64,000 nt of DNA from Pristiophorus japonicus (Eukaryota): NCBI RefSeq assembly GCF_044704955.1, contig NC_091982.1:235662001-235726000 (forward strand), written 5' to 3'. Positions 3,926-62,624 of this stretch are shown here, piece by piece; the first letter of the stretch is position 1; each line of letters starts with the position of its first letter. Position numbers and translations under genes: made by a program. Under the pieces are notes generated by a model that was given only the letters and a program-made list of their open reading frames with translations, ran no database searches and was not told the origin of the DNA.

Positions 3926-6443
3926 TTTAACTTGCATTCTTTCCATTCTGTTATTACTAGGGTTCCTGTTATCGGCATTGCATGATCAAGAAGTTACTGG
4001 TTTTATGAAAGTTTGAAACAATTTTAAATAGAACAACATTTATTAGCTCCTTCTAGATTACAAACTCCAGATTGCGTGACTTGTACCTAACTAGTTGGTT
4101 AATTGCATCATTGATGCAGGACTTACAGAATCAAGAACGGTTACAGCGCAGAAGGAGGTCATTTGGCCCGTCGAGCCCGTGCCGGCTCTGCAAGAGCACT
4201 TCAGCTAGTCCCACTCGCCCGCCCCTACCCCGGAGCCTGACAAATAATTTTTCCTTCAGGTACTTATCCAATTCCCTTTTGAAAGCTGCGATTGAATCTG
4301 CCTCCACCACCCTTTCAGGCAGTGCATTCCAGATCCTAACCACTCTCTGGTCCCAAGGTGAAGTCTCAAATATCGCACTCAAACCAAAAAATAGATACAT
4401 CGTTATAAACGCAGTAGTTAATTTTAACTCGTTATTTAAGCAAAAACAATCACATGAGCATTCGATAAAAATAGAATATGCTGGAAACACTCAGCAGGTC
4501 ATCTGTGGAGAGAGAAACTGAGTTAACGTTTCAGGTTGGTGACCAGAAGTGGAAGGAATTAGCGATTTAACAGTTTTTAAGCAAGGGCAGAGCCCGGGGA
4601 AAATGATGAGGGGATGGGGGGAGGGGAGGAAAGAACTAAAGCGAAGATCTGTGATGGGGTGGAGGGCAGGAGCGATTTAAATGTCAAAAGGGATGGTCGT
4701 GCAAATGATGAGAACATAAGAAATAGGAGCAGGAGTAGGCCATTTGGCCCCTCGAGCCTGCACCGCCATTTAATAAAGATCATGGCTGATCTGATCTTGG
4801 CCTCAACTCCACTTCCCATAATCCTTGGCTCCCTTATCATTCAAAAATCTGATGGTGAGGAAACTCCCTCACTACTTGTTTAACTTCTCCTCCTTCGGAG
4901 TAAGCATGACTAACTGAAGGGTTGTTCATGGGAGGAATTAACTCAGGCAGCTACCATTAACGGCATTTTGGTTTTTACAAGTAAAGATTGCTCATCAGTT
5001 CCAGGTCTGGTTAAAAGGGGAGAAGAAGAATATGATGAATTTCATAGAATAGTACCGCACAGAAGGAGGCCATTCGGCCCATCGAGTCTGCGCCGGCTCT
5101 TTCGAAGAGCAATCCCATTAGTCCCGCCCCTCCGCTCTTTACCCATAACCCTTGCAACTTTTTCCCATTCAATTCCCTTTAGAAGGCCACTGTTGACTCT
5201 GCATCCACCACCCTATCAGGCAGTGCATTCCGAATCCTAAACACTCGTCGCGTAAAAAAGTTTCCCCTCACGTGGCCTCGGGTTCTTTTGCCGATCACCT
5301 TCAAATTTGAGCCAGAAAGTTATAGATTTGGCAAACGGGTTGCCTCCCCATCCCCTCCAACTGTTCACCCGCTAGTAAAAGTGAAGGGAAGAAACGCGGT
5401 GAGCAACATTGTAAGCGACCTCCAGCGATACACAAACAGGACCAGCTATTTTTTTTTGCACAAAGGATCACACAGCTTGAAAACTCTAGGCACAACATGT
5501 AATGTTTCTCCAGAATAATTGCCTCTGTCATTGATTTATTTATCTTTTTGCGCCATCAGCTTTTTAAAAAAAAATGTCTTCTTTGCCGTGAGATGTATCC
5601 CGGCATTGTATTGAGGCACAATTAGCGATACACAGCAGCGCATCTGATTTTTCATAAATTTAGGACGAGCTTGCATTTATATGCTGCCTTTTGTGTCCCG
5701 AGAATATCCCTTAAAAGGCTTTGTTAACCAATGTATTTAATGTTTGAAGTGCGGTCACTGTTTTGTAGGCAAATTCAGCAGACATTTTGCACACAACAGG
5801 ATGCCACGAGCAGCGGAGAAATGAATGGGTTGAATTACTGGTTAATCTGTTCTTGGTGTTCATTGAGGGATGTGTGTTGGCCAGGACACCGGGGAGATCG
5901 CCACTGCTCTCCCTATTTATTTATTTTTGGAATAGTGGAATCTTTTGCATCCGCTTGCAGCTGGTGCACTGGATGCCGCCACAAGATCCTGCAAATCCTC
6001 TGGGAGGACAGACGCACCAAAGTTGGCATCCTCTACCAGGTCAACATCCCCAACATTGAAACACTGACCACACTCGATCAGCTCAGCAGGGCAGGCCACA
6101 GTTCGCGTGCCCGACACGAGACTCCCAAAGCAAGCGCTCTACTCGGAGCTCCTTCACGGCAAACGAGCCAAAGGTGGACAGAGGAAACGTTACAAGGACA
6201 CCCTCAAAGCCTCCTTGATAAAGTGCAACATCCCCACTGACACCTGGGAGTCCCTGGCCAAAGACCGCCCTAATTGGAGGAAGCGCATCCGGGAGGGTGC
6301 TGAGCACCTCGAGTCTCATCACCGAGAGCATGCAGAAATCAAGCATAGAAACATAGAAACATAGAAAATAGGTGCAGGAGTAGGCCATTCGGCCCTTCTA
6401 GCCTGCACCGCCATTCAATGAGTTCATGGCTGAACATTCAACT

Positions 6444-9350
6444 TCAGTACCCCATTCCTGCTTTCTCGCCATACCCCTTGATCCCCCTAGCAGTAAGGAC
6501 CTCATCTAACTCCTTTTTGAATATATTTAGTGAATTGGCCTCAACAACTTTCTGTGGTAGAGAATTCCACAGGTTCACCACTCTCTGGGTGAAGAAGTTC
6601 CTCCGCATCTCGGTCCTAAATGGCTTACCCCTTATCCTTAGACTGTGACCCCTGGTTCTGGACTTCCCCAACATTGGGAACATTCTTCCTGCATCTAACC
6701 TGTCTAACCCCGTCAGAATTTTATATGTTTCTATGAGGTCCCCTCTCATTCTTCTGAACTCCAGTGAATACAAGCCCAGTTGATCCAGTCTTTCTTGATA
6801 GGTCAGTCCCGCCATCCCGGGAATCAGTCTGGTGAACCTTCGCTGCACTCCCTCAATAGCAAGAATGTCCTTCCTCAGGTTAGGAGACCAAAACTGTACA
6901 CAATACTCCAGGTGTGGCCTCACCAATGCCCTGTACAACTGTAGCAACACCTCCCTGCCCCTGTACTCAAATCCCCTTGCTATGAAGGCCAACATGCCAT
7001 TTGCTTTCTTAACCGCCTGCTGCACCTGCATGCCAACCTTCAATGACTGATGTACCATGACACCCAGGTCTCTTTGCACCTCCCCTTTTCCTAATCTGTC
7101 ACCATTCAGATAATAGTCTGTCTCTCTGTTTTTACCACCAAAGTGGATAACCTCACATTTATCCACATTATACTTCATCTGCCATGCATTTGCCCATTCA
7201 CCTAACCTATCCAAGTCGCTCTGCAGCCTCACAGCATCCTCCTCGCAGCTCACACTGCCACCCAACTTAGTGTCATCCGCAAACTTGGAGATACTACACT
7301 CAATCCCCTCATCTAAATCATTAATGTACAGTGTAAACAGCTGGGGCCCCAGCACAGAACCCTGCGGTACCCCACTAGTCACTGCCTGCCATTCTGAAAA
7401 GTACCCATTTACTCCTACTCTTTGCTTCCTGTCTGACAACCAGTTCTCAATCCATGTCAGTACACTACCCCCAATCCCATGTGCTCTAACTTTGCACATC
7501 AATCTCTTGTGTGGGACCTTGTCGAACGCCTTCTGAAAGTCCAAATATACCACATCAACTGGTTCTCCCTTATCCACTCTACTGGAAACATCCTCAAAAA
7601 ATTCCAGAAGATTTGTCAAGCATGATTTCCCTTTCACAAATCCATGCTGACTTGGACCTATCATGTCACCTCTTTCCAAATGCACTGCTATGACATCCTT
7701 AATAATTGATTCCATCATTTTACCCACTACCGATGTCAGGCTGACCGGTCTATAATTCCCTGTTTTCTCTCTCCCTCCTTTTTTAAAAAGTGGGGTTACA
7801 TTGGCTACCCTCCACTCCATAGGAACTGATCCAGAGTCAATGGAATGTTGGAAAATGACTGTCAACGCATCCACTATTTCCAAGGCCACTTCCTTAAGTA
7901 CTCTGGGATGCAGTCCATCAGGCCCTGGGGATTTATCGGCCTTCAATCCCATCAATTTCCCCAACACAATTTCCCGGCTAATAAGGATTTCCCTCAGTTC
8001 CTCCTCCTTACTAGACCCCCCGACCCCTTTTATAACCGGAAGGTTGTTCGTGTCCTCCTTCGTGAATACCGAACCAAAGTACTTGTTCAATTGGTCCGCC
8101 ATTTCTTTGTTCCCCGTTATGACTTCCCCTGATTCTGACTGCAGGGGACCTACGTTTGTCTTTACTAACCTTTTTCTCTTTACATATCTATAGAAACTTT
8201 TGCAATCCGTCTTAATGTTCCCTGCAAGCTTCTTCTCATACTCCATTTTCCCTGCCCTAATCAAACCCTTTGTCCTCCTCTGCTGAGTTCTAAATTTCTC
8301 CCAGTCCCCAGGTTCGCTGCTATTTCTGGCCAATTTGTATGCCACTTCCTTGGCTTTAATACTATCCCTGATTTCCCTTGATAGCCACGGTTGAGCCACC
8401 TTCCCTTTTTTATTTCTATGCCAGACAGGAATGTACAATTGTTGTAGTTCATCCATGCGGTCTCTAAATGTCTGCCATTGCCCATCCACAGTCAACCCCT
8501 TAAGTATCATTCGCCAATCCATCTCAGCCAATTCACGCCTCATACCTTCAAAGTTAGCCTTCTTTAAGTTCTGGACCATGGTCTCTGAATTAACTGTTTC
8601 ATTCTCCATCCTAATGCAGAATTCCACCATATTATGGTCACTCTTCCCCAAGGGGCCTCGCACAACGAGATTGCTAATTAATCCTTTCTCATTACATAAC
8701 ACCCAGTCTAAGATGGCCTCCCCCCTAGTTGGTTCCTCGACATATTGGTCTAAAAAACCATCCCTTATGCACTCCAGAAAATCCTCCTCCACCGTATTGC
8801 TTCCAGTTTGGTTAGCCCAATCTATGTGCATATTAAAGTCACCCATTATAACTGCTGCACCTTTATTGCACGCACCCCTAATTTCCTGTTTGATGCCCTC
8901 CCCAACATCACTACTACTGTTTGGAGGTCTGTACACAACTCCCACTAACGTTTTTTGCCCTTTGGTGTTCTGCAGCTCTACCCATATAGATTCCACATCA
9001 TCCAAGCTAATGTCCTTCCTAACTATTGCCTTAATCTCCTCCTTAACCAGCAATGCTACCCCACCTCCTTTTCCTTTTATTCTATCCTTCCTGAATGTTG
9101 AATACCCCTGGATGTTGAGTTCCCAGCCCTGCTCATCCTGGAGCCACGTCTCCGTAATCCCAATCACATCATATTTGTTAACATCTATTTGCACAGTTAA
9201 TTCATCCACCTTATTGCGGATACTCCTTGCATTAAGACACAAAGCCTTTAGGCTTGTTTTTTTAACACCCTCTGTCCTTTTAGAATTTTGCTGTACAATG
9301 GCCCTTTTTGTTCTTTGCCTTGGGTTTCTCTGCCCTCCACTTTTCCTCAT
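6444..9350 (-). CDS. CR1 ORF2: apurinic endonuclease + reverse transcriptase (968 aa from first ATG; frame is open further upstream)
   Basis: APE motifs LNARS, ITETW, YRPP, MGDFN, SDH; RT motifs [27 protein letters not shown]. Confidence 0.95.
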   Translation of the reverse strand: MRKSGGQRNPRQRTKRAIVQQNSKRTEGVKKTSLKALCLNARSIRNKVDELTVQIDVNKYDVIGITETWLQDEQGWELNIQGYSTFRKDRIKGKGGGVALLVKEEIKAIVRKDISLDDVESIWVELQNTKGQKTLVGVVYRPPNSSSDVGEGIKQEIRGACNKGAAVIMGDFNMHIDWANQTGSNTVEEDFLECIRDGFLDQYVEEPTRGEAILDWVLCNEKGLISNLVVRGPLGKSDHNMVEFCIRMENETVNSETMVQNLKKANFEGMRRELAEMDWRMILKGLTVDGQWQTFRDRMDELQQLYIPVWHRNKKGKVAQPWLSREIRDSIKAKEVAYKLARNSSEPGDWEKFRTQQRRTKGLIRAGKMEYEKKLAGNIKTDCKSFYRYVKRKRLVKTNVGPLQSESGEVITGNKEMADQLNKYFGSVFTKEDTNNLPVIKGVGGSSKEEELREILISREIVLGKLMGLKADKSPGPDGLHPRVLKEVALEIVDALTVIFQHSIDSGSVPMEWRVANVTPLFKKGGREKTGNYRPVSLTSVVGKMMESIIKDVIAVHLERGDMIGPSQHGFVKGKSCLTNLLEFFEDVSSRVDKGEPVDVVYLDFQKAFDKVPHKRLMCKVRAHGIGGSVLTWIENWLSDRKQRVGVNGYFSEWQAVTSGVPQGSVLGPQLFTLYINDLDEGIECSISKFADDTKLGGSVSCEEDAVRLQSDLDRLGEWANAWQMKYNVDKCEVIHFGGKNRETDYYLNGDRLGKGEVQRDLGVMVHQSLKVGMQVQQAVKKANGMLAFIARGFEYRGREVLLQLYRALVRPHLEYCVQFWSPNLRKDILAIEGVQRRFTRLIPGMAGLTYQERLDQLGLYSLEFRRMRGDLIETYKILTGLDRLDAGRMFPMLGKSRTRGHSLRIRGKPFRTEMRRNFFTQRVVNLWNSLPQKVVEANSLNIFKKELDEVLTARGIKGYGEKAGMGY

Positions 9351-9427
9351 CTCCTTTCTGTCTTTTGTTTTTGCCTCCTTTTTGTTTCCCTCTATCTCCC
9401 TGCATTGGTTCCCATCCCCCTGCCATA

Positions 9428-10375
9428 TTAGTTTAACTCCTCCCCAACAGCACTAGCAAACACTCCCCCGAGGACATTGGTTCCGATTCTGCCCAGGTGC
9501 AGACCGTCCGGATTGTACTGGTCCCACCTCCCCCAGAACCGGTTCCAATGCCCCAGGAATTTGAATCCCTCCCTGCTGCACCATTGCTCAAGCCACGTAT
9601 TCATCTGAGCTATCCTGCGATTCCTACTCTGACTAGCACGTGGCACTGGTAGCAATCCCGAGATTACTACTTTTGAGGTCCTACTTTTTAATTTAGCTCC
9701 TAGCTCCTTAAATTCATTTCGTAGGAACTCATCCCTTTTTTTACCTATGTCATTGGTACCAACGTGCACCACGACAACTGGCTGTTCTCCCTCCCTTTTT
9801 AGAATGTCCTCCACCCGCTCCGAGACATCCTTGACCCTTGCACCAGGGAGGCAACATACCATCCTGGAGTCTCGGTTGCGGCCGCAGAAACGCCTATCTA
9901 TTCCCCTTACAATTGAATCCCCTATCACTATCGCTCTTCCACTCTTTTTCCTGCCCTCCTGTGCAACAGAGCCAGCCACGGTGCCATGAACTTGGCTGCT
10001 GCTGCCCTCCCCTGATGAGTCATCCCCCTCAACAGTACTCAAAGCGGTGTATCTGTTTTGCAGGGGGATGACCACAGGGGACCCCTGCACTACCTTCCTT
10101 GCACTACTCTTCCTGCTGGTCTTCCATTCCCTCGCTGGCTGTGGACCCTTCTCCTGCAGTAAGACCAACTCGCTACACGTGATACTCACGTCATTCTCAG
10201 CATCGTGGATGCTCCAGAGTGAATCCACCTTCAGCTCCAACTCCGCAACGCGGACCGTCAGTAGCCGGAGGTGGACACACTTCCCGCACATGTAGTCGTC
10301 AGGGACACTGGTGTTGTCCCCGTGTTCCCACATGGTACAGGAGGAGCATATCACGTGACCGAGCTGTCCTGCCAT
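9428..10375 (-). CDS. CR1 ORF1p: N-terminal CxxC zinc finger/leucine zipper + SGNH esterase
   Basis: CSSC...CGKC, heptad leucines, IGDSIVR, CLPGA, HVGTND, DGLHL motifs. Confidence 0.93.
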   Translation of the reverse strand: MAGQLGHVICSSCTMWEHGDNTSVPDDYMCGKCVHLRLLTVRVAELELKVDSLWSIHDAENDVSITCSELVLLQEKGPQPAREWKTSRKSSARKVVQGSPVVIPLQNRYTALSTVEGDDSSGEGSSSQVHGTVAGSVAQEGRKKSGRAIVIGDSIVRGIDRRFCGRNRDSRMVCCLPGARVKDVSERVEDILKREGEQPVVVVHVGTNDIGKKRDEFLRNEFKELGAKLKSRTSKVVISGLLPVPRASQSRNRRIAQMNTWLEQWCSREGFKFLGHWNRFWGRWDQYNPDGLHLGRIGTNVLGGVFASAVGEELN

Positions 10376-10555
10376 GACTTAACCCTTAGATACACTTAAA
10401 TTGCCGACAACAATGTTAAAAGTTACTGACTAATAAAGAAAAAGAAAAACTACTCACCAATCAGCAGCCAATCACTTACCACGTTGGCTGTGACGTCACC
10501 TTTTGATTTCCTTCTACTTTTTTGCCTTCTCTCCCAGCTGGAGCTGCACCGCTAC

Positions 10556-10824
10556 GCCTCTCTGGACTCCCGCCTCTCTCGACGCTCCCCGGACTGCTGA
10601 GCCTTTTATAGGCCGCTGCCTCTCTGGACTCCCGCCTCTCTCGACGCTCCCCGGACTGCTGAGCCTTTTACAGGCCGCTGCCTCTCTGGACTCCCGCCTC
10701 TCTCGACGCTCCCCGAATTGCTGAGCCTTTTATAGGCCGCTGCCTCTCTGGACTCCCGCCTCTCTCGACGCTCCCCGGACTGCTGAGCCTTTTACAGGCC
10801 GCTGCCTCTCTGGACTCCCGCCTC
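10556..10824 (-). repeat. About 4.3 copies of a 62-bp monomer in the CR1 5' UTR
   Basis: Units start at 10556, 10618, 10680, 10742 and 10804; each full unit has CCTTTTA(T/C)AGG (TATAAAAGG or TGTAAAAGG on the element strand). Confidence 0.9.
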
Positions 10825-11271
10825 CGCACAGGCAGCGGAAAGAGCATGTGGCAAACCTGTCCCACCCTCCCTTTCCCTCAACGATTATCTGTCCCCCTGT
10901 AGACTGTGGCTTTTGTATTGGACTGTTCAGACACCCGAGGACTCATTTTAAGAGTGGAAGCAAGTCTTCCTTGATTCCGAGGGACTGCCTATGATGATGA
11001 TGATGACGGTCCTTGTTCGAACGCCTCGCCCGAAGGACGGCATGTGCGACATTGTAGCACTCCCTCAGCACTGCACCGATGTGTCAGTTTAGATGATGCA
11101 CTCAAGTCGCTGAAACCCAGCAGCGTCTGCTTTCGAGAGTGCCGTGACTGTGCCGAATCGGACACTTTCTTTTATCCGAGGTGACTCATTTGGCCTATTT
11201 CTTTCACTTAATACCTGCGCCCCACTCTCGGCCTAATCAATAATCCAATCTATGCATCCATGCAAAATAAT

Positions 11272-12777: not shown

Positions 12778-13776
12778 TTATTTGCACAATGTTAAGCTGG
12801 TCTCGTTTGCCCCCTCTTCATCCCCACTTCTCTTCTTGCGCTGGATCTCTTTAGTTGATCCAAAGGTTTCCGTAATTTTTGATCGGAATGATTTGCAGAG
12901 GTAGAAATACAAAATGGGATCAAAGCAGAGATTGAGAACAGCTAAAAGGAACGTGGACTCCTTTGCCAGAAACAGGGCTCGCTGTACAGTGCAGTCTCTC
13001 ACTGGCTTGTATTGACTGAGAGTGTACGGAGTCCGCACAATGTGGTACGGGACGAAGCAAATAACGTAGACGCCAGTCAGTATGAAAATATGCCTCACTG
13101 TTTGCTGCACGTCTTTCTGCATTTCTCTATCCTTGTTGTTATAGAGTTTTTTCACCACGAGGAAGTTGGAGGTTAGCAGCACAACTGAAACATTCATGAA
13201 TATCGCGATGCAGATAAAGTTGGTGAGGACATGCCAGTGCAGACCCAACGTGGTCTTGATCTCCGCGCACCTCAGGAGAGGCTTTGCGTCTATGCTTTTG
13301 ATGGGGATTGCCATGTTTGGCACCATCAGCAGCAGGACCATTCCCCACACCACGACGGACATCATTTTCGCGAAACCTGGTTCCTGTATCCGTTGGAATC
13401 TTGAGTTTCCTGATAGCTGAATGTATCGATCTATGCTCACGAAGCCCAGAAATATAATCGATGAATACATATTAATATAGATAAGGCAAGCCGTGACCTG
13501 ACAGTGGAAGATCTTCAAATTCCAGGGAGCAATACCCAAGTTAACAGCTATTTTGAAAGGTAGAGCCAAACTCAGCAGAAAATCGGCAGTCAGTAGGTTA
13601 ATTAGATAGATATTAAGGCATTTTCGAGCCTTTCTTTGGCTAATGAATGCCCAAAGTGCTATGAAACTCCCAATAATGCCAATCAGGAAGATTAAATAAT
13701 AGAAGTAAGTGAGAGCCTCCAAATTGTTGTTGATTATACACCGAGTACTGGAGCTGTTTGAAGATTCGGAGCTCAT
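12778..13776 (-). CDS. GPR171: G protein-coupled receptor 171 (P2Y12-like subfamily), 332 aa, single coding exon
   Basis: 7TM with YLINLLTADFLL, LKIFHCQVTACLIYINMY, DRY, CFVPYHIVR, AKESTFLLAVLNLCFDPILY typical of GPR171; first true ATG at 13776 follows a splice acceptor (cttctcgtttcAG, 13819-13818). Confidence 0.92.
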   Translation of the reverse strand: MSSESSNSSSTRCIINNNLEALTYFYYLIFLIGIIGSFIALWAFISQRKARKCLNIYLINLLTADFLLSLALPFKIAVNLGIAPWNLKIFHCQVTACLIYINMYSSIIFLGFVSIDRYIQLSGNSRFQRIQEPGFAKMMSVVVWGMVLLLMVPNMAIPIKSIDAKPLLRCAEIKTTLGLHWHVLTNFICIAIFMNVSVVLLTSNFLVVKKLYNNKDREMQKDVQQTVRHIFILTGVYVICFVPYHIVRTPYTLSQYKPVRDCTVQRALFLAKESTFLLAVLNLCFDPILYFYLCKSFRSKITETFGSTKEIQRKKRSGDEEGANETSLTLCK

Positions 13777-16177
13777 TGTGTGCAGTCTCAAACAACAACT
13801 TGACAATTTATTCCGATCTGAAACGAGAAGCAAGAATGAGATTGAAAATGAATTTCTGCATTGCTTTTAAATCAAATCAAAGACATTCAATTATTCAGGC
13901 ATTTCTGACTTTGGGGGAGAAGGAGGGGCGGGGTGTGTGGGGAGAATCTATACAGGAGAGATTTTAATGGGTTAATATAGCCGAGGGTGAGAGGGAACCT
14001 CGTAAAATAAATTTAGATGACATCAAAGTAACCATAAGAGAAAACATACTTTACTATGTTGACGCTTTAATAAGGCAACTTGCCTAGTGTGTTGAAATTT
14101 TCAACCAGATGAGCAAACAGTTTGTTATCTCGACAAGGTAGATTCTTGCTGACCTGGAGTTGCTGCCGTATCCAAGTGAGGGTATTGTAGCTGCGAATAT
14201 AGTCGTCCTTTTTCAGAATGGAGCACCAATGTTGCACAATGATGAGTTTGGGGTGACACTGATGTTTTAAGTCTCCAAATCCCTCTGCAGCTTGAATAAA
14301 TTTGAGAAAGGAAGTATGTTAGCACCCTCGTATCTTGTTTCTCTTCGAAGGAAACAGCTTGTAGGAAATGCTTAATGAGTGAGAAAATGTGTCACCTGCG
14401 CTCAGTGGAAGGCTATTAATGACCTTTTTAAGAAGTTAATCACCATTTTTTTCGCCTGTTGATTCGGTCATTAACGTAACTTTTACATGCCAACCACCTT
14501 GTACATTCCCAGCGGTGCTGCACTCCCTCCCTGAATTTCCCTTATTACTCACACTCTGCATCAGCAGTTGGCTTGTTTCAGTTTACTAGAAACATGAGTT
14601 ACAGTAATAGTCTTTCTAAAGTGTAGTCTGTGTTATTGGGAGCTATTAAGACATCTGCAATTCTCAGTTATCAAGTAGCTCTTGGCTGCAAACATAATGC
14701 TTACTGATCAAGTTCTACTTCAGGCGCTGCAGCAGTCCCTGTAATCCCTACCCTCTTTACATTGATTACAGTGCTTGGTTCCTGATGGCAGTGCTTTTCA
14801 ATGGTAGATTTTTAGGGACAGCCGAGCGGGTCTCAAACAATTTCCAGTTGATTTTCAGAATTCTTCAATCTTATTTTTCTCTCCAACACACAAATGACTC
14901 AAGCGGCCCTTTAAACATTCATTGCTGCAAAAGGAAATTAGTGGAACAGAAAGAGATGTTGATGTGACAAGCCTGCAAGACTGAAGGGAGGAGGAAGTGA
15001 AATAGATTCGACTTTAGATAAATGTTGTGGTAGCGACAATAATCAGTAACGGGCACGAAAGCAACAAATGGTTCAGGTGGAGCAAACATTTTTGCTTGTT
15101 GACGGGTTTAACAATTACGGAGAGAGTGATTCCATTCAGCTTTGTCAGCTATATATTGCTGTTCTTTAACTTCAGAGGACGGTGGGGGGTGGGGGGGAGA
15201 GAGAAAAGCTGTGTTAAAAGCAGGATTGATTGTCGCAGGATCCTGAAAAGACTGATTTTTAAAAAAAAATTAAAAATCCTGGAAGCCCATGTAATGAAAA
15301 CCCAATTTGTCTTTGTTCAATCACTGACCCTCATTGTAAGGCCTCTTTATATAATATGGGCAGGTGCACAATATTAACATTTTTCACAACAAAAACACAT
15401 GCAATTGCAAAATGTGATTCTAACAGCACTGTAAAGCCTGGAATCCAATGTAATAAGAACACAACGCAACCACTCGGTCACCTCAAACCCGTGGCTCTGG
15501 CCATGTCCATTTTCTTTCACTCTGCGGACAGATTTAGCTGGATCGCGGCAGGATTGACGGGACCGTTATTTCACAGACTGCCTCCGAATGGCTAAACCTA
15601 TCCCATCATGCTCTTAGTGTAGCACCAGAGTAAACTTTATTTATATATTTTCTGTTTTAAAAAAAGTGATTTTTCAAAACTATGCTGACAGGCATATACA
15701 TAAGAAATAGGAGCAGGAGTAAGCCATACAGCCCCTCGAGCCTGCTCTGCCATTTAATATGATCATGGCTGATCTGATCATGGACTCAGGTCCACTTCCC
15801 TACCCGCTCCCCATAACCCCTTATTCCCTTATCGGTTAATAAACTGTCTAGTTGCTGGAAAAATCATCAATGTTAAAACGTTGCAATGGTATTTGTAGTT
15901 TGCAAAGCCTTGGGTTAACATTTTTAATTTAAAACAAATGCCTGGTCTATCACCATTTCTGAATTGTCAGCAGAACACACTGGCAAGAGCGAAGTCGTGG
16001 GCCGACATTTTTTAATCCAGCAGTTTTTCTACAAAATATGCTTTTTTTAAAAAAAAAAAGTGTTTAAGATGTTTGGTTTTCACATGTAAACACTTTACCT
16101 CCTGATCAATTAACAATCACAGCGCAAAATAGTTTGGTGTCTTTTAAGGTACCAAAATAAAAATATAACTTCCATAC

Positions 16178-52267: not shown

Positions 52268-52426
52268 NNNNNNNNNNNNNNNNNNNNNNNNNNNNNNNNN
52301 NNNNNNNNNNNNNNNNNNNNNNNNNNNNNNNNNNNNNNNNNNNNNNNNNNNNNNNNNNNNNNNNNNNNNNNNNNNNNNNNNNNNNNNNNNNNNNNNNNNN
52401 NNNNNNNNNNNNNNNNNNNNNNNNNN
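52268..52426. other. Assembly gap (N run)
   Basis: Run of N characters. Confidence 0.99.
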
Positions 52427-60697: not shown

Positions 60698-62596
60698 AGA
60701 AACATAGAAACATAGAAAATAGATGCAGGAGTAGGCCATTCGGCCCTTCGAGCCTGCACCGCCATTCGATGAGTTCATGGCTGAACATGCAACCTCAGTA
60801 CCCCATTCCTGCTTTCTCACCATACCCCTTGATCCCCTAGTAGTAAGGACTACATCTAACTCCTTTTTGAATATATTTAGTGAATTGGCCTCAACAACTT
60901 TCTGTGGTAGAGAATTCCACAGGTTCACCACCCTCTGGGTGAAGAAGTTTCTCCTCATCTCGGTCCTAAATGGCTTACCCCTTATCCTTAGACTGTGACC
61001 CTGGTTCTGGACTTCCCCAACATTGGGAACATTCTTCCTGCATCTAACCTGTCTAAACCCGTCAGAATTTTAAACGTTTCTATGAGGCCCCCTCTCATTC
61101 TTCTGAACTCCAGTGAATACAAACCCAGTTGATCCAGTCTTTCTTGATATGTCAGTCCCGCTATCCCGGGAATCAGTCTGGTGAACCTTCGCTGCTCTCC
61201 CTCAATAGCAAGAATGTCCTTCTTCAAGTTAGGAGACCAAAATTACACAATACTCCAGGTGTGGCCTCACCAAGGCCTTGTACAACTGTAGCAACACCTG
61301 GACTCAAATCCCCTCGCTATGAAGGCCAACATGCCATTTGCTTTATTAACCGCCTGCTGTACCTGCATACCAACCTTCAATGACTGATGTACCATGACAC
61401 CCAGGTCTCGTTGCACCTCCCCTTTTCCTAATCTGTCACCATTCAGATAATAGTCTGTCTCTCTGTTTTTACCACCAAAGTGGATAACCTCACATTTATC
61501 CACATTATACTTCATCTGCCATGCATTTGCCCACTCACCTAACCTATCCAAGTCACTCTGCAGCCTCATAGCATCCTCCTCGCAGCTCACATTGCCACCC
61601 AACTTAGTGTCATCCGCAAATTTGGGGATACTACATTTAATCACCTCGTCCAAATCATTAATGTACAATGTAAACAGCTGGGGCCCAAGCACAGAACCTT
61701 GCGGTACCCCACTAGTCACTGCCTGCCATTCTGAAAAGTACCCATTTACTCCTACTCTTTGCTTCCTGTCTGACAACCAGTTCTCAATCTACGTCAGCAC
61801 ACTGCCCCCAATCCCATGTGCTTTAACTTTGCACATTAATCTCTTGTGTGGGACCTTGTCGAAAGCCTTCTGAAAGTCCAAATATACCACATCAACTGGT
61901 TCTCCCTTGTCCACTCTACTGGAAACATCCTCAAAAAATTCCAGAAAATTTGTCAAGCATGATTTCCCTTTCACAAATCCATGCTGACTTGGACCTATCA
62001 TATCACCTCTTTCCAAATGCGCTGCTATGACATCCTTAATAATTGATACCATCATTTTACCCACTACTGATGTCAGCTGACTGGTCTATTATTGCCTGTT
62101 TTCTCTCTCCCTCCTTTTTTAAAAAGTGGGATTACATTGGTTACCCTCCACTCAAGTGCAAACCGTCCCTTTTGTACAGGTCCCACTTCCCCTAGAACTG
62201 GTTCCAATGTCCCAGGAATTTGAATCCCTCCCTCTTGCACCACTGCTCAAGCCACGTATTTATTCTAACTATCCTGCTCCCTCTACTCTGATTAGCATGT
62301 GGCACTGGTAGCAATCCAGAGATTACTACCTTTGAGGTCCTACTTTTTAATTTCACTCCTAGCTCCCTAAATTCAGCTTGTAGGACCTCTTCCCGCTTCT
62401 TACCTATATCGTTGGTACCTACATGTACCACGACAACTGGCTATTCACCCTCCCTCTCCAGAATGCTCTGCAGCCACTCCGAGACATCCTTGACCCTTGC
62501 ACCAGCGAGGCAACATACCATCCTGGAGTCTCGGTTGCGGCCGCAGAAACTCCTATCTATTCCCCTTCCAATAGAGTCCCCTATCACTATAGCTCT
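60698..62596 (-). mobile_element. CR1 of the same subfamily as 6345-10824, with a large internal deletion
   Basis: Near-identical RT and 3' end; near 62150 the RT-upstream sequence joins directly to ORF1 esterase sequence (HVGTND). Confidence 0.88.
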
Positions 62597-62624
62597 TCTA
62601 TGTTTCTATGTCTCTATGTTTCTA

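Follow-up and report, generated by a model that had tools for sequence, protein, structure and literature searches.

How ORF2 of a LINE is translated from its bicistronic RNA is an open question. The published view for L1 and SART1, whose RNAs like that of CR1 carry an endonuclease and a reverse transcriptase (RT) in ORF2, is reinitiation or an AUG-independent start (PMC5009743, PMC3708506). Both models yield a free ORF2 protein and not a fusion: for L1 the relevant part of PMC5009743 gives unconventional AUG-independent initiation with no frameshifting, and for SART1 the relevant part of PMC3708506, which covers 2A recoding as well, gives a UAAUG stop-start. For Paramecium elements a +1 shift or reinitiation has been suggested (PMC5405496). 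A review legend states that a -1 frameshift is needed for ORF2 of the Dictyostelium APE-type non-LTR elements TRE5-A and TRE3-A (PMC5911963); these belong to a different clade and have a different type of ORF1 from CR1, and the likeness to the case described below extends only as far as that legend, which gives neither a slippery site nor an experiment. CR1 elements have a two-ORF layout and are the chicken's main interspersed repeat (PMC11835228). No description of CR1 frameshifting was found in the literature searched (including the parts covered of PMC4255032 and PMC7140322; early CR1 papers and Repbase notes are outside that scope), and CR1 is absent from the portion of PMC5009743 covered.

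In the 1a/1b genes of coronaviruses and arteriviruses (U_UUA_AAC or G_UUA_AAC) and in retroviral gag-pol, a slippery heptamer lies at the end of the first ORF and the polymerase is encoded in the -1 frame. U_UUA_AAC, G_GGA_AAC and A_AAA_AAC are all ranked among the most shift-prone sites (PMC5009743), and the deviation GUU is tolerated at eukaryotic -1 sites, as in equine arteritis virus, whose GUUAAAC was named in the initial annotation of the present locus and is indeed in print (PMC3542737, PMC5009743). The CR1 element analyzed here has the same arrangement of heptamer and -1 frame polymerase. It differs from the viral systems in that the carrier is a non-LTR retrotransposon, the stop codon directly follows the heptamer, minimum free energy (MFE) folds show no local pseudoknot or strong stem-loop, and a Pfam domain search found no protease domain in the ORF1 or ORF2 protein. 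On the sequence evidence given below, we consider it likely that this LINE makes a 1310-aa ORF1-ORF2 fusion protein by -1 programmed frameshifting.

The element lies in what we call the window, the whole 64,000-nucleotide stretch of Pristiophorus japonicus DNA that was analyzed, and its parts are as follows:
6344..10825, minus strand: CR1-type LINE, full length, both ORFs intact, inside an older repeat
10556..10824, minus strand: tandem array of the 5' UTR, 62 bp x 4.3, some copies with a TATA-like word
9428..10375, minus strand: ORF1, 315 aa, stop TAA at 9430-9428; Cys-rich N-terminus, SGNH esterase, C-terminal ...GEELN
10060..10100, minus strand: nucleotide-conserved island in ORF1, codons RKVVQGSPVVIPL, with a local hairpin and a donor-like site
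9431..9437, minus strand: slippery heptamer G_TTA_AAC in the ORF1 frame, T_TTA_AAC in most related lineages
9411..9420, minus strand: G-block GGGGG-AT-GGG, candidate stimulator, starting 11 nt past the heptamer; the sole recurring downstream feature
9388..9400, minus strand: third and fourth G-runs of a proposed quadruplex, with no conservation beyond the clade of the window
9234..9431, minus strand: -1 frame linker, about 66 aa, basic
6444..9431, minus strand: ORF2 as entered by the putative shift, 995 aa (linker, APE endonuclease, RT), with the Asn of LNARS at 9233
6344..6415, minus strand: end of the 3' UTR, inverted repeat and (TTTCTATG) microsatellite, read from the sequence

The approximate ends of the element, 10825 and 6344, were set by the 62-bp array and the terminal TTTCTATG repeats. 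Elements of the CR1 clade end at the 3' side in a microsatellite rather than poly(A), and the expected features are all present here: an esterase ORF1 (Pfam Lipase_GDSL_2), an APE endonuclease and RT in the ORF2 frame (Exo_endo_phos and RVT_1) and a 3' microsatellite in place of poly(A). In an ORF1 esterase tree (not an RT tree) the element groups with turtle, squamate and bird proteins, and the closest named ORF1 proteins are those of sawshark (91%) and then of other cartilaginous fish. CR1 is very abundant in P. japonicus, where the element's family gave more than 100,000 first-look candidates in the 5.9-Gb genome. A second CR1 copy in the window (60720-62620, minus strand) has an internal deletion that joins the esterase to the RT, so that the ORF1 end, the junction and the endonuclease are gone; its ORF1 and ORF2 parts are 79% and 86% identical to the main element, respectively, and it sits in the same kind of repeat. 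The window also contains an intact single-exon rhodopsin-family GPCR gene (12778-13866, plus strand; Pfam 7tm_1), which we take to resemble GPR171, and 159 N letters (52268-52426) within an older CR1 ORF2 fragment.

The initial annotation had placed GTTAAAC at 9437-9431 as the close of ORF1 (GAG GAG TTA AAC TAA), and these coordinates and the frame are correct, as is its statement that the -1 frame runs without a stop into ORF2; between 9452 and 6447 this frame has no stop, and its translation is VKLIWQGDGNQCREIEG...EMRK...LNARS. The site is thus an X_XXY_YYZ heptamer in the zero frame with the tolerated GUU deviation. Heptamers of the X_XXY_YYZ or GUU type occupy only 3 of the 1306 in-frame positions of both ORFs, and one of the three coincides with the final two codons of ORF1, so its place there is beyond chance. 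In the genome as a whole, TTTAAACTAG-N4-9-GGGGG has 6905 matches, against 42 for the reversed control.

Conservation was followed in 15 lineages, the majority sequences of 14 subfamilies of this genome and one metagenome contig (L031), defined by a clustering from which singletons and two tiny clusters were left out. Eight of the lineages came from pattern searches whose pattern held both the heptamer and the G-run, and these are therefore circular for those two features, though non-circular for frame and start codons. GTTAAAC TAA is present in 30 of 30 copies identical over the last 90 ORF1 residues, and the canonical T_TTA_AAC is found in the sister subfamily and also in an old family, whose ORF1 was located by means of a protein that shares 44% identity with that of the window. 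U_UUA_AAC is the usual site, the G form being confined to the window's sub-lineages. Searches with the proteins P0047, P0035, P0069 and P0131 returned mostly the window's clade. An unselected sample of 80 arbitrary 10-kb stretches (800 kb), searched with queries that lacked the last eight ORF1 residues, had the heptamer at 13 of 13 ORF1 ends (11 called by script, one at a site 12 nt beyond the expected position and one with a mutated stop), with the stop intact in 12 of the 13, and loci found with a distant protein had it at 33 of 33. TTA AAC occurs in all nine aligned lineages, while in the esterase region TTA accounts for 18 of 130 Leu codons and AAC for 24 of 55 Asn codons; the base ahead of it is always T or G in these nine, though the amino acid of that codon varies. 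The heptamer is thus kept at the nucleotide level beyond the need of the protein. The lineages and the proteins are related, so p-values from such comparisons are overstated.

The register is kept as well. Twelve of the 15 lineages have ORF2 in the -1 frame, without a stop from the heptamer on, over seven different linker lengths; this was read directly in 11 lineage sequences (10 majority sequences of this genome and L031), and lineage B is -1 by its modal segment lengths. The three others, A5, B2 and E, are small or old sets (3, 7 and 5 copies) that contain homopolymer runs, and their apparent frames are 0, +1 and 0, respectively. The distances from the heptamer to the endonuclease Asn are 98, 155, 164, 197, 206, 209 and 245 nt, all 2 mod 3. 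Over 702 codons in the 11 lineages there are no stops in the -1 frame, against 48 and 62 (110 together) in the two others, and when the linkers of seven lineages were shuffled each remained open in 0.2-10% of trials. The outcome that the annotation had named as refuting, no conservation of heptamer or frame among related CR1 elements, did not occur: the heptamer and the -1 register are kept in related lineages, including some that have no in-frame AUG. Lineages A4 (L069, L071, L073 and L138), C2 and C3 look recombinant; A4 joins a window-type ORF1 and linker start to a C3-type linker end and endonuclease, and such mosaics suggest template switching within the linker with the -1 frame preserved.

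ORF1 proteins of other organisms carry the trace of the same site. A C-terminal LN is present in 52 of the 67 homologues that reach the C-terminus, with varying residues before it, and in 26 of the best 28 50%-identity representatives; the LN-ending proteins bear the names of shark, ray, skate, chimaera, coelacanth, sturgeon, turtle, snake, lizard (Komodo dragon) and two birds. The C-terminus is LN in 47 of 99 distinct representatives; in the remaining 52 it is GN ten times and KN twice (background 1.2%), these being distant relatives, and FF, GN, KN or LN stands at the last or second-last place in 18 of the 52. The residue ahead of GN is Q or S and that ahead of KN is S, all of which fit G_GGA_AAC or A_AAA_AAC, the codons for GN, KN and FF being deduced from the protein ends. 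In a quick ORF1 tree, made with the last residues excluded, the named jawed-vertebrate clade has LN in 34 of 37 members and a fish clade in 0 of 8, the SGN and SKN ends share one clade (SH support 98), and the LN and FF ends share another (SH support 99). The esterase of PDB 4C1B, which we take to be from zebrafish ZfL2-1, represents the fish esterase-ORF1 LINEs; it is a homologous SGNH esterase (E 1e-39), unlike CR1 in that none of the eight rows of the fish clade has a slippery C-terminal dipeptide. Its alignment reaches just position 306 of the 310 of the profile, and because it stops there and the eight-member fish clade lacks LN, the esterase fold does not need the LN end. Residues E, Q, K, M and W precede LN in only 1 of 86 cases, a depletion that we set aside as a weak signal because positions -6, -7 and -9 are low as well.

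The ray protein P0038 crosses the junction as ...EGFKLNLQGAG..., the same -1 peptide. A search for longer fused proteins gave six gene models, which were uninformative. DNA from outside the genome consists of L031 and short contigs; the first heptamer base is T in contigs of two other organisms, which cover the junction and hardly any of the linker. No loci were found in viral_contigs (three scans), plasmids or phages, and the metagenome collection gave one; four weak matches in genome_contigs were dropped as bacterial or unrelated. In a clade of five proteins (P0191, P0193, P0223, P0232 and P0238) K-N lies 10-18 residues ahead of the C-terminus and not at the end, which may reflect an A_AAA_AAC site whose overlap is longer. 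P0006 is a shark-type ORF1 esterase that NCBI lists under Pseudomonas aeruginosa, probably as a result of host contamination.

Could ORF2 instead be reached by termination-reinitiation or AUG-independent initiation, with the TTAAAC-stop kept as a termination/reinitiation signal? This would accord with the published view of LINEs described above, the linker contains an in-frame AUG in six of the 11 lineages (at codon 20, 30, 52 or 58), and initiation right at the junction would likewise require an open frame. There is, however, no conserved AUG: five of the 11 (A2, C1, C2, C4 and L031) have none in frame before the endonuclease motif, and A2, C1, C2 and C4 have none for another 64-89 aa either. 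In the window out-of-frame AUGs at 9426, 9415 and 9405 come ahead of the first in-frame one at 9350, and the AUG nearest the ORF1 stop is not, as in a SART1-type stop-start, in frame. Reinitiation also leaves the fixed -1 register, the rule of T or G at the first base and the LN/GN/KN swaps unexplained, and we regard it as improbable, if the likeliest of the three alternatives considered here. The coding constraint ahead of the ATG for which the initial annotation had proposed a check is not borne out beyond the open frame, which is kept; constraint on the amino acids is weak (pN/pS 0.40-1.32, against 0.07-0.15 in the endonuclease). Separately, a 48-aa ORF in the +1 frame (9426-9283, minus strand) starts 1 nt past the ORF1 stop with its AUG in good context; it is found in the window clade, is missing from the C lineages and could trap reinitiating ribosomes.

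Two other routes would join the frames in the RNA or supply ORF2 protein by accident, and both seem to us very improbable, the second slightly less so. A splice from the donor-like site at 10094/10093 in ORF1 to the acceptor-like CAG at 9420/9419, with TAAACTAA as branch point, would be in frame to ORF2, and the donor-like site falls within the most synonymously conserved stretch of ORF1; yet there is no polypyrimidine tract, the branch point would lie less than 10 nt from the AG, and the acceptor phase is lost in lineages B and D. No such deletion occurs among 101 genomic stretches, the joint is absent among the joints listed for eight runs (15 of 18; 7 of 7), covered as contigs only, and a splice would leave the GN and KN swaps unexplained. 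Alternatively, the little ORF2 protein needed might come from a polymerase that slips on the G-run or heptamer, or from unprogrammed frameshifting at a low level, a suggestion favoured by the variable length of the G-run in old copies of lineage B and by the lack of a classical stimulator. Because the G-run follows the ORF1 stop, an indel in it cannot join the frames; moreover, the heptamer has no run of more than three bases, and the listings for the eight runs (contigs) show no indel there. Programmed -1 frameshifting thus remains our preferred reading.

What might stimulate such a shift is the part of which we are least certain. The initial annotation had proposed a G-quadruplex, and its four G-runs are present in the window (9420-16, 9413-11, 9400-9398 and 9390-88, with loops of 2, 10 and 7 nt), but the quadruplex is not conserved: four G3 runs occur in six of 15 lineages with loops of up to 12 nt and in none with loops of up to 7 nt. 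ViennaRNA MFE folds contain some G4 in eight of 15 lineages and none in the window family, and as of 2016 natural G4 frameshift stimulators were not known according to the part covered of PMC5009743. Nor do the MFE folds of the 15 lineages have a strong downstream stem-loop or pseudoknot (z -1.7 to +1.3). Local 3' hairpins are weak (0 to -7.4 kcal/mol), unlike the stem-loop or pseudoknot 5-9 nt downstream that is usual at -1 sites; the -7.4 kcal/mol hairpin of the window family has z -3.1 against dinucleotide shuffles, and hairpins are not significant in the other lineages. What does recur is a run of at least five G, which begins at +9 to +11 in 15 of 15 lineages, an observation that is non-circular for A, A1, A3, A4, B and L031. 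In PRRSV nsp2 a protein-bound motif, CCCANCUCC, lies about 11 nt past the shift site (PMC5009743). The CR1 G-block is like it in being an unstructured homopolymer-rich motif at such a distance and unlike it in being G-rich rather than C-rich, in following a different heptamer and in that its binding protein is hypothetical, so the two are compared by analogy only. Our best guess at the stimulator is an unstructured G-block 9-11 nt downstream that would act through a bound protein, aided by the adjacent stop.

A partner for the G-block was also sought within the element. The ORF1 island at 10060-10100 is real: it is the most synonymously conserved ORF1 stretch across nine lineages, contains the top three of 314 seven-codon windows and encodes an S-P...L-x-N-R-Y motif present in many ORF1 homologues. 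The 30 nt past the ORF1 stop pair best with ORF1 10080-10060 (-35.4 kcal/mol, the next best being -22.4), lower than in all 150 tiled windows and, by its mean, the top site in three lineage sets, and 10070-10060 is exactly complementary to 9423-9413, an 11-bp core that starts 7 nt past the heptamer. Against shuffled sequences, however, the pairing stands out in A1 and A3 alone, with A2 marginal; the upstream arm forms a fold of its own, L031 has no partner, arm swaps between lineages show no cognate preference, there is no clear compensatory change, and a core pair is broken in 23 of the 96 readable window-clade copies (24 more are unreadable). On these grounds we would not extend the duplex to a general stimulator, and keep the long-range pairing as a lead for the window's clade only. 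The 3' UTR was rejected as a partner of the G-block because that pairing (-20.8 kcal/mol) is sixth best and because A- and B-type elements have similar 3' ends but different G-blocks, and pairing with the CCLPG codons (-436) is second best with no cognate preference.

As the heptamer is kept, ORF2 lies one base back and often has no start codon of its own, the RT is likely made as a fusion. The proposal of an esterase-endonuclease-RT protein, with which the analysis began, is in this way strengthened by the kept heptamer, the -1 register and the lineages without AUG; from these observed features and the open frame we infer the slip, the fusion and a low ratio of ORF2 to ORF1 product. Most ribosomes would halt at the UAA and release the 315-aa ORF1 protein. 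In a minority, the tRNA-Leu and tRNA-Asn paired to UUA AAC would move back in tandem by one base, and the shifted ribosomes would read LIWQGDG..., the basic linker and then the endonuclease and RT, giving a predicted Gag-Pol-like product of 315 + 995 = 1310 aa with the junction ...GEELN-LIWQGDG.... The G_UUA_AAC of the window may be less shift-prone than U_UUA_AAC. A much wider proposal, speculative and in our opinion rather doubtful, is that a Gag-Pol-like -1 fusion is the source of RT in all esterase-type CR1 elements, those of jawed vertebrates as well as their invertebrate relatives, with U_UUA_AAC, G_GGA_AAC and A_AAA_AAC swapped among them. The stimulator would then be of an undescribed kind, a G-block 10 nt downstream held either by a bound protein or, in cis, by an "antisense" arm that lies 630 nt upstream in ORF1 and is first freed from its local hairpin by the translating ribosome.

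If the -1 fusion is correct, a whole LINE clade would employ retrovirus-style recoding, its ORF2 protein would carry the ORF1 esterase along with it, and ORF2 annotations that begin at the first Met would be wrong. The lack of a classical RNA structure would point to a further kind of frameshift stimulator. The seven-base site would give a clean genetic handle for tests and for CR1 retrotransposition assays.
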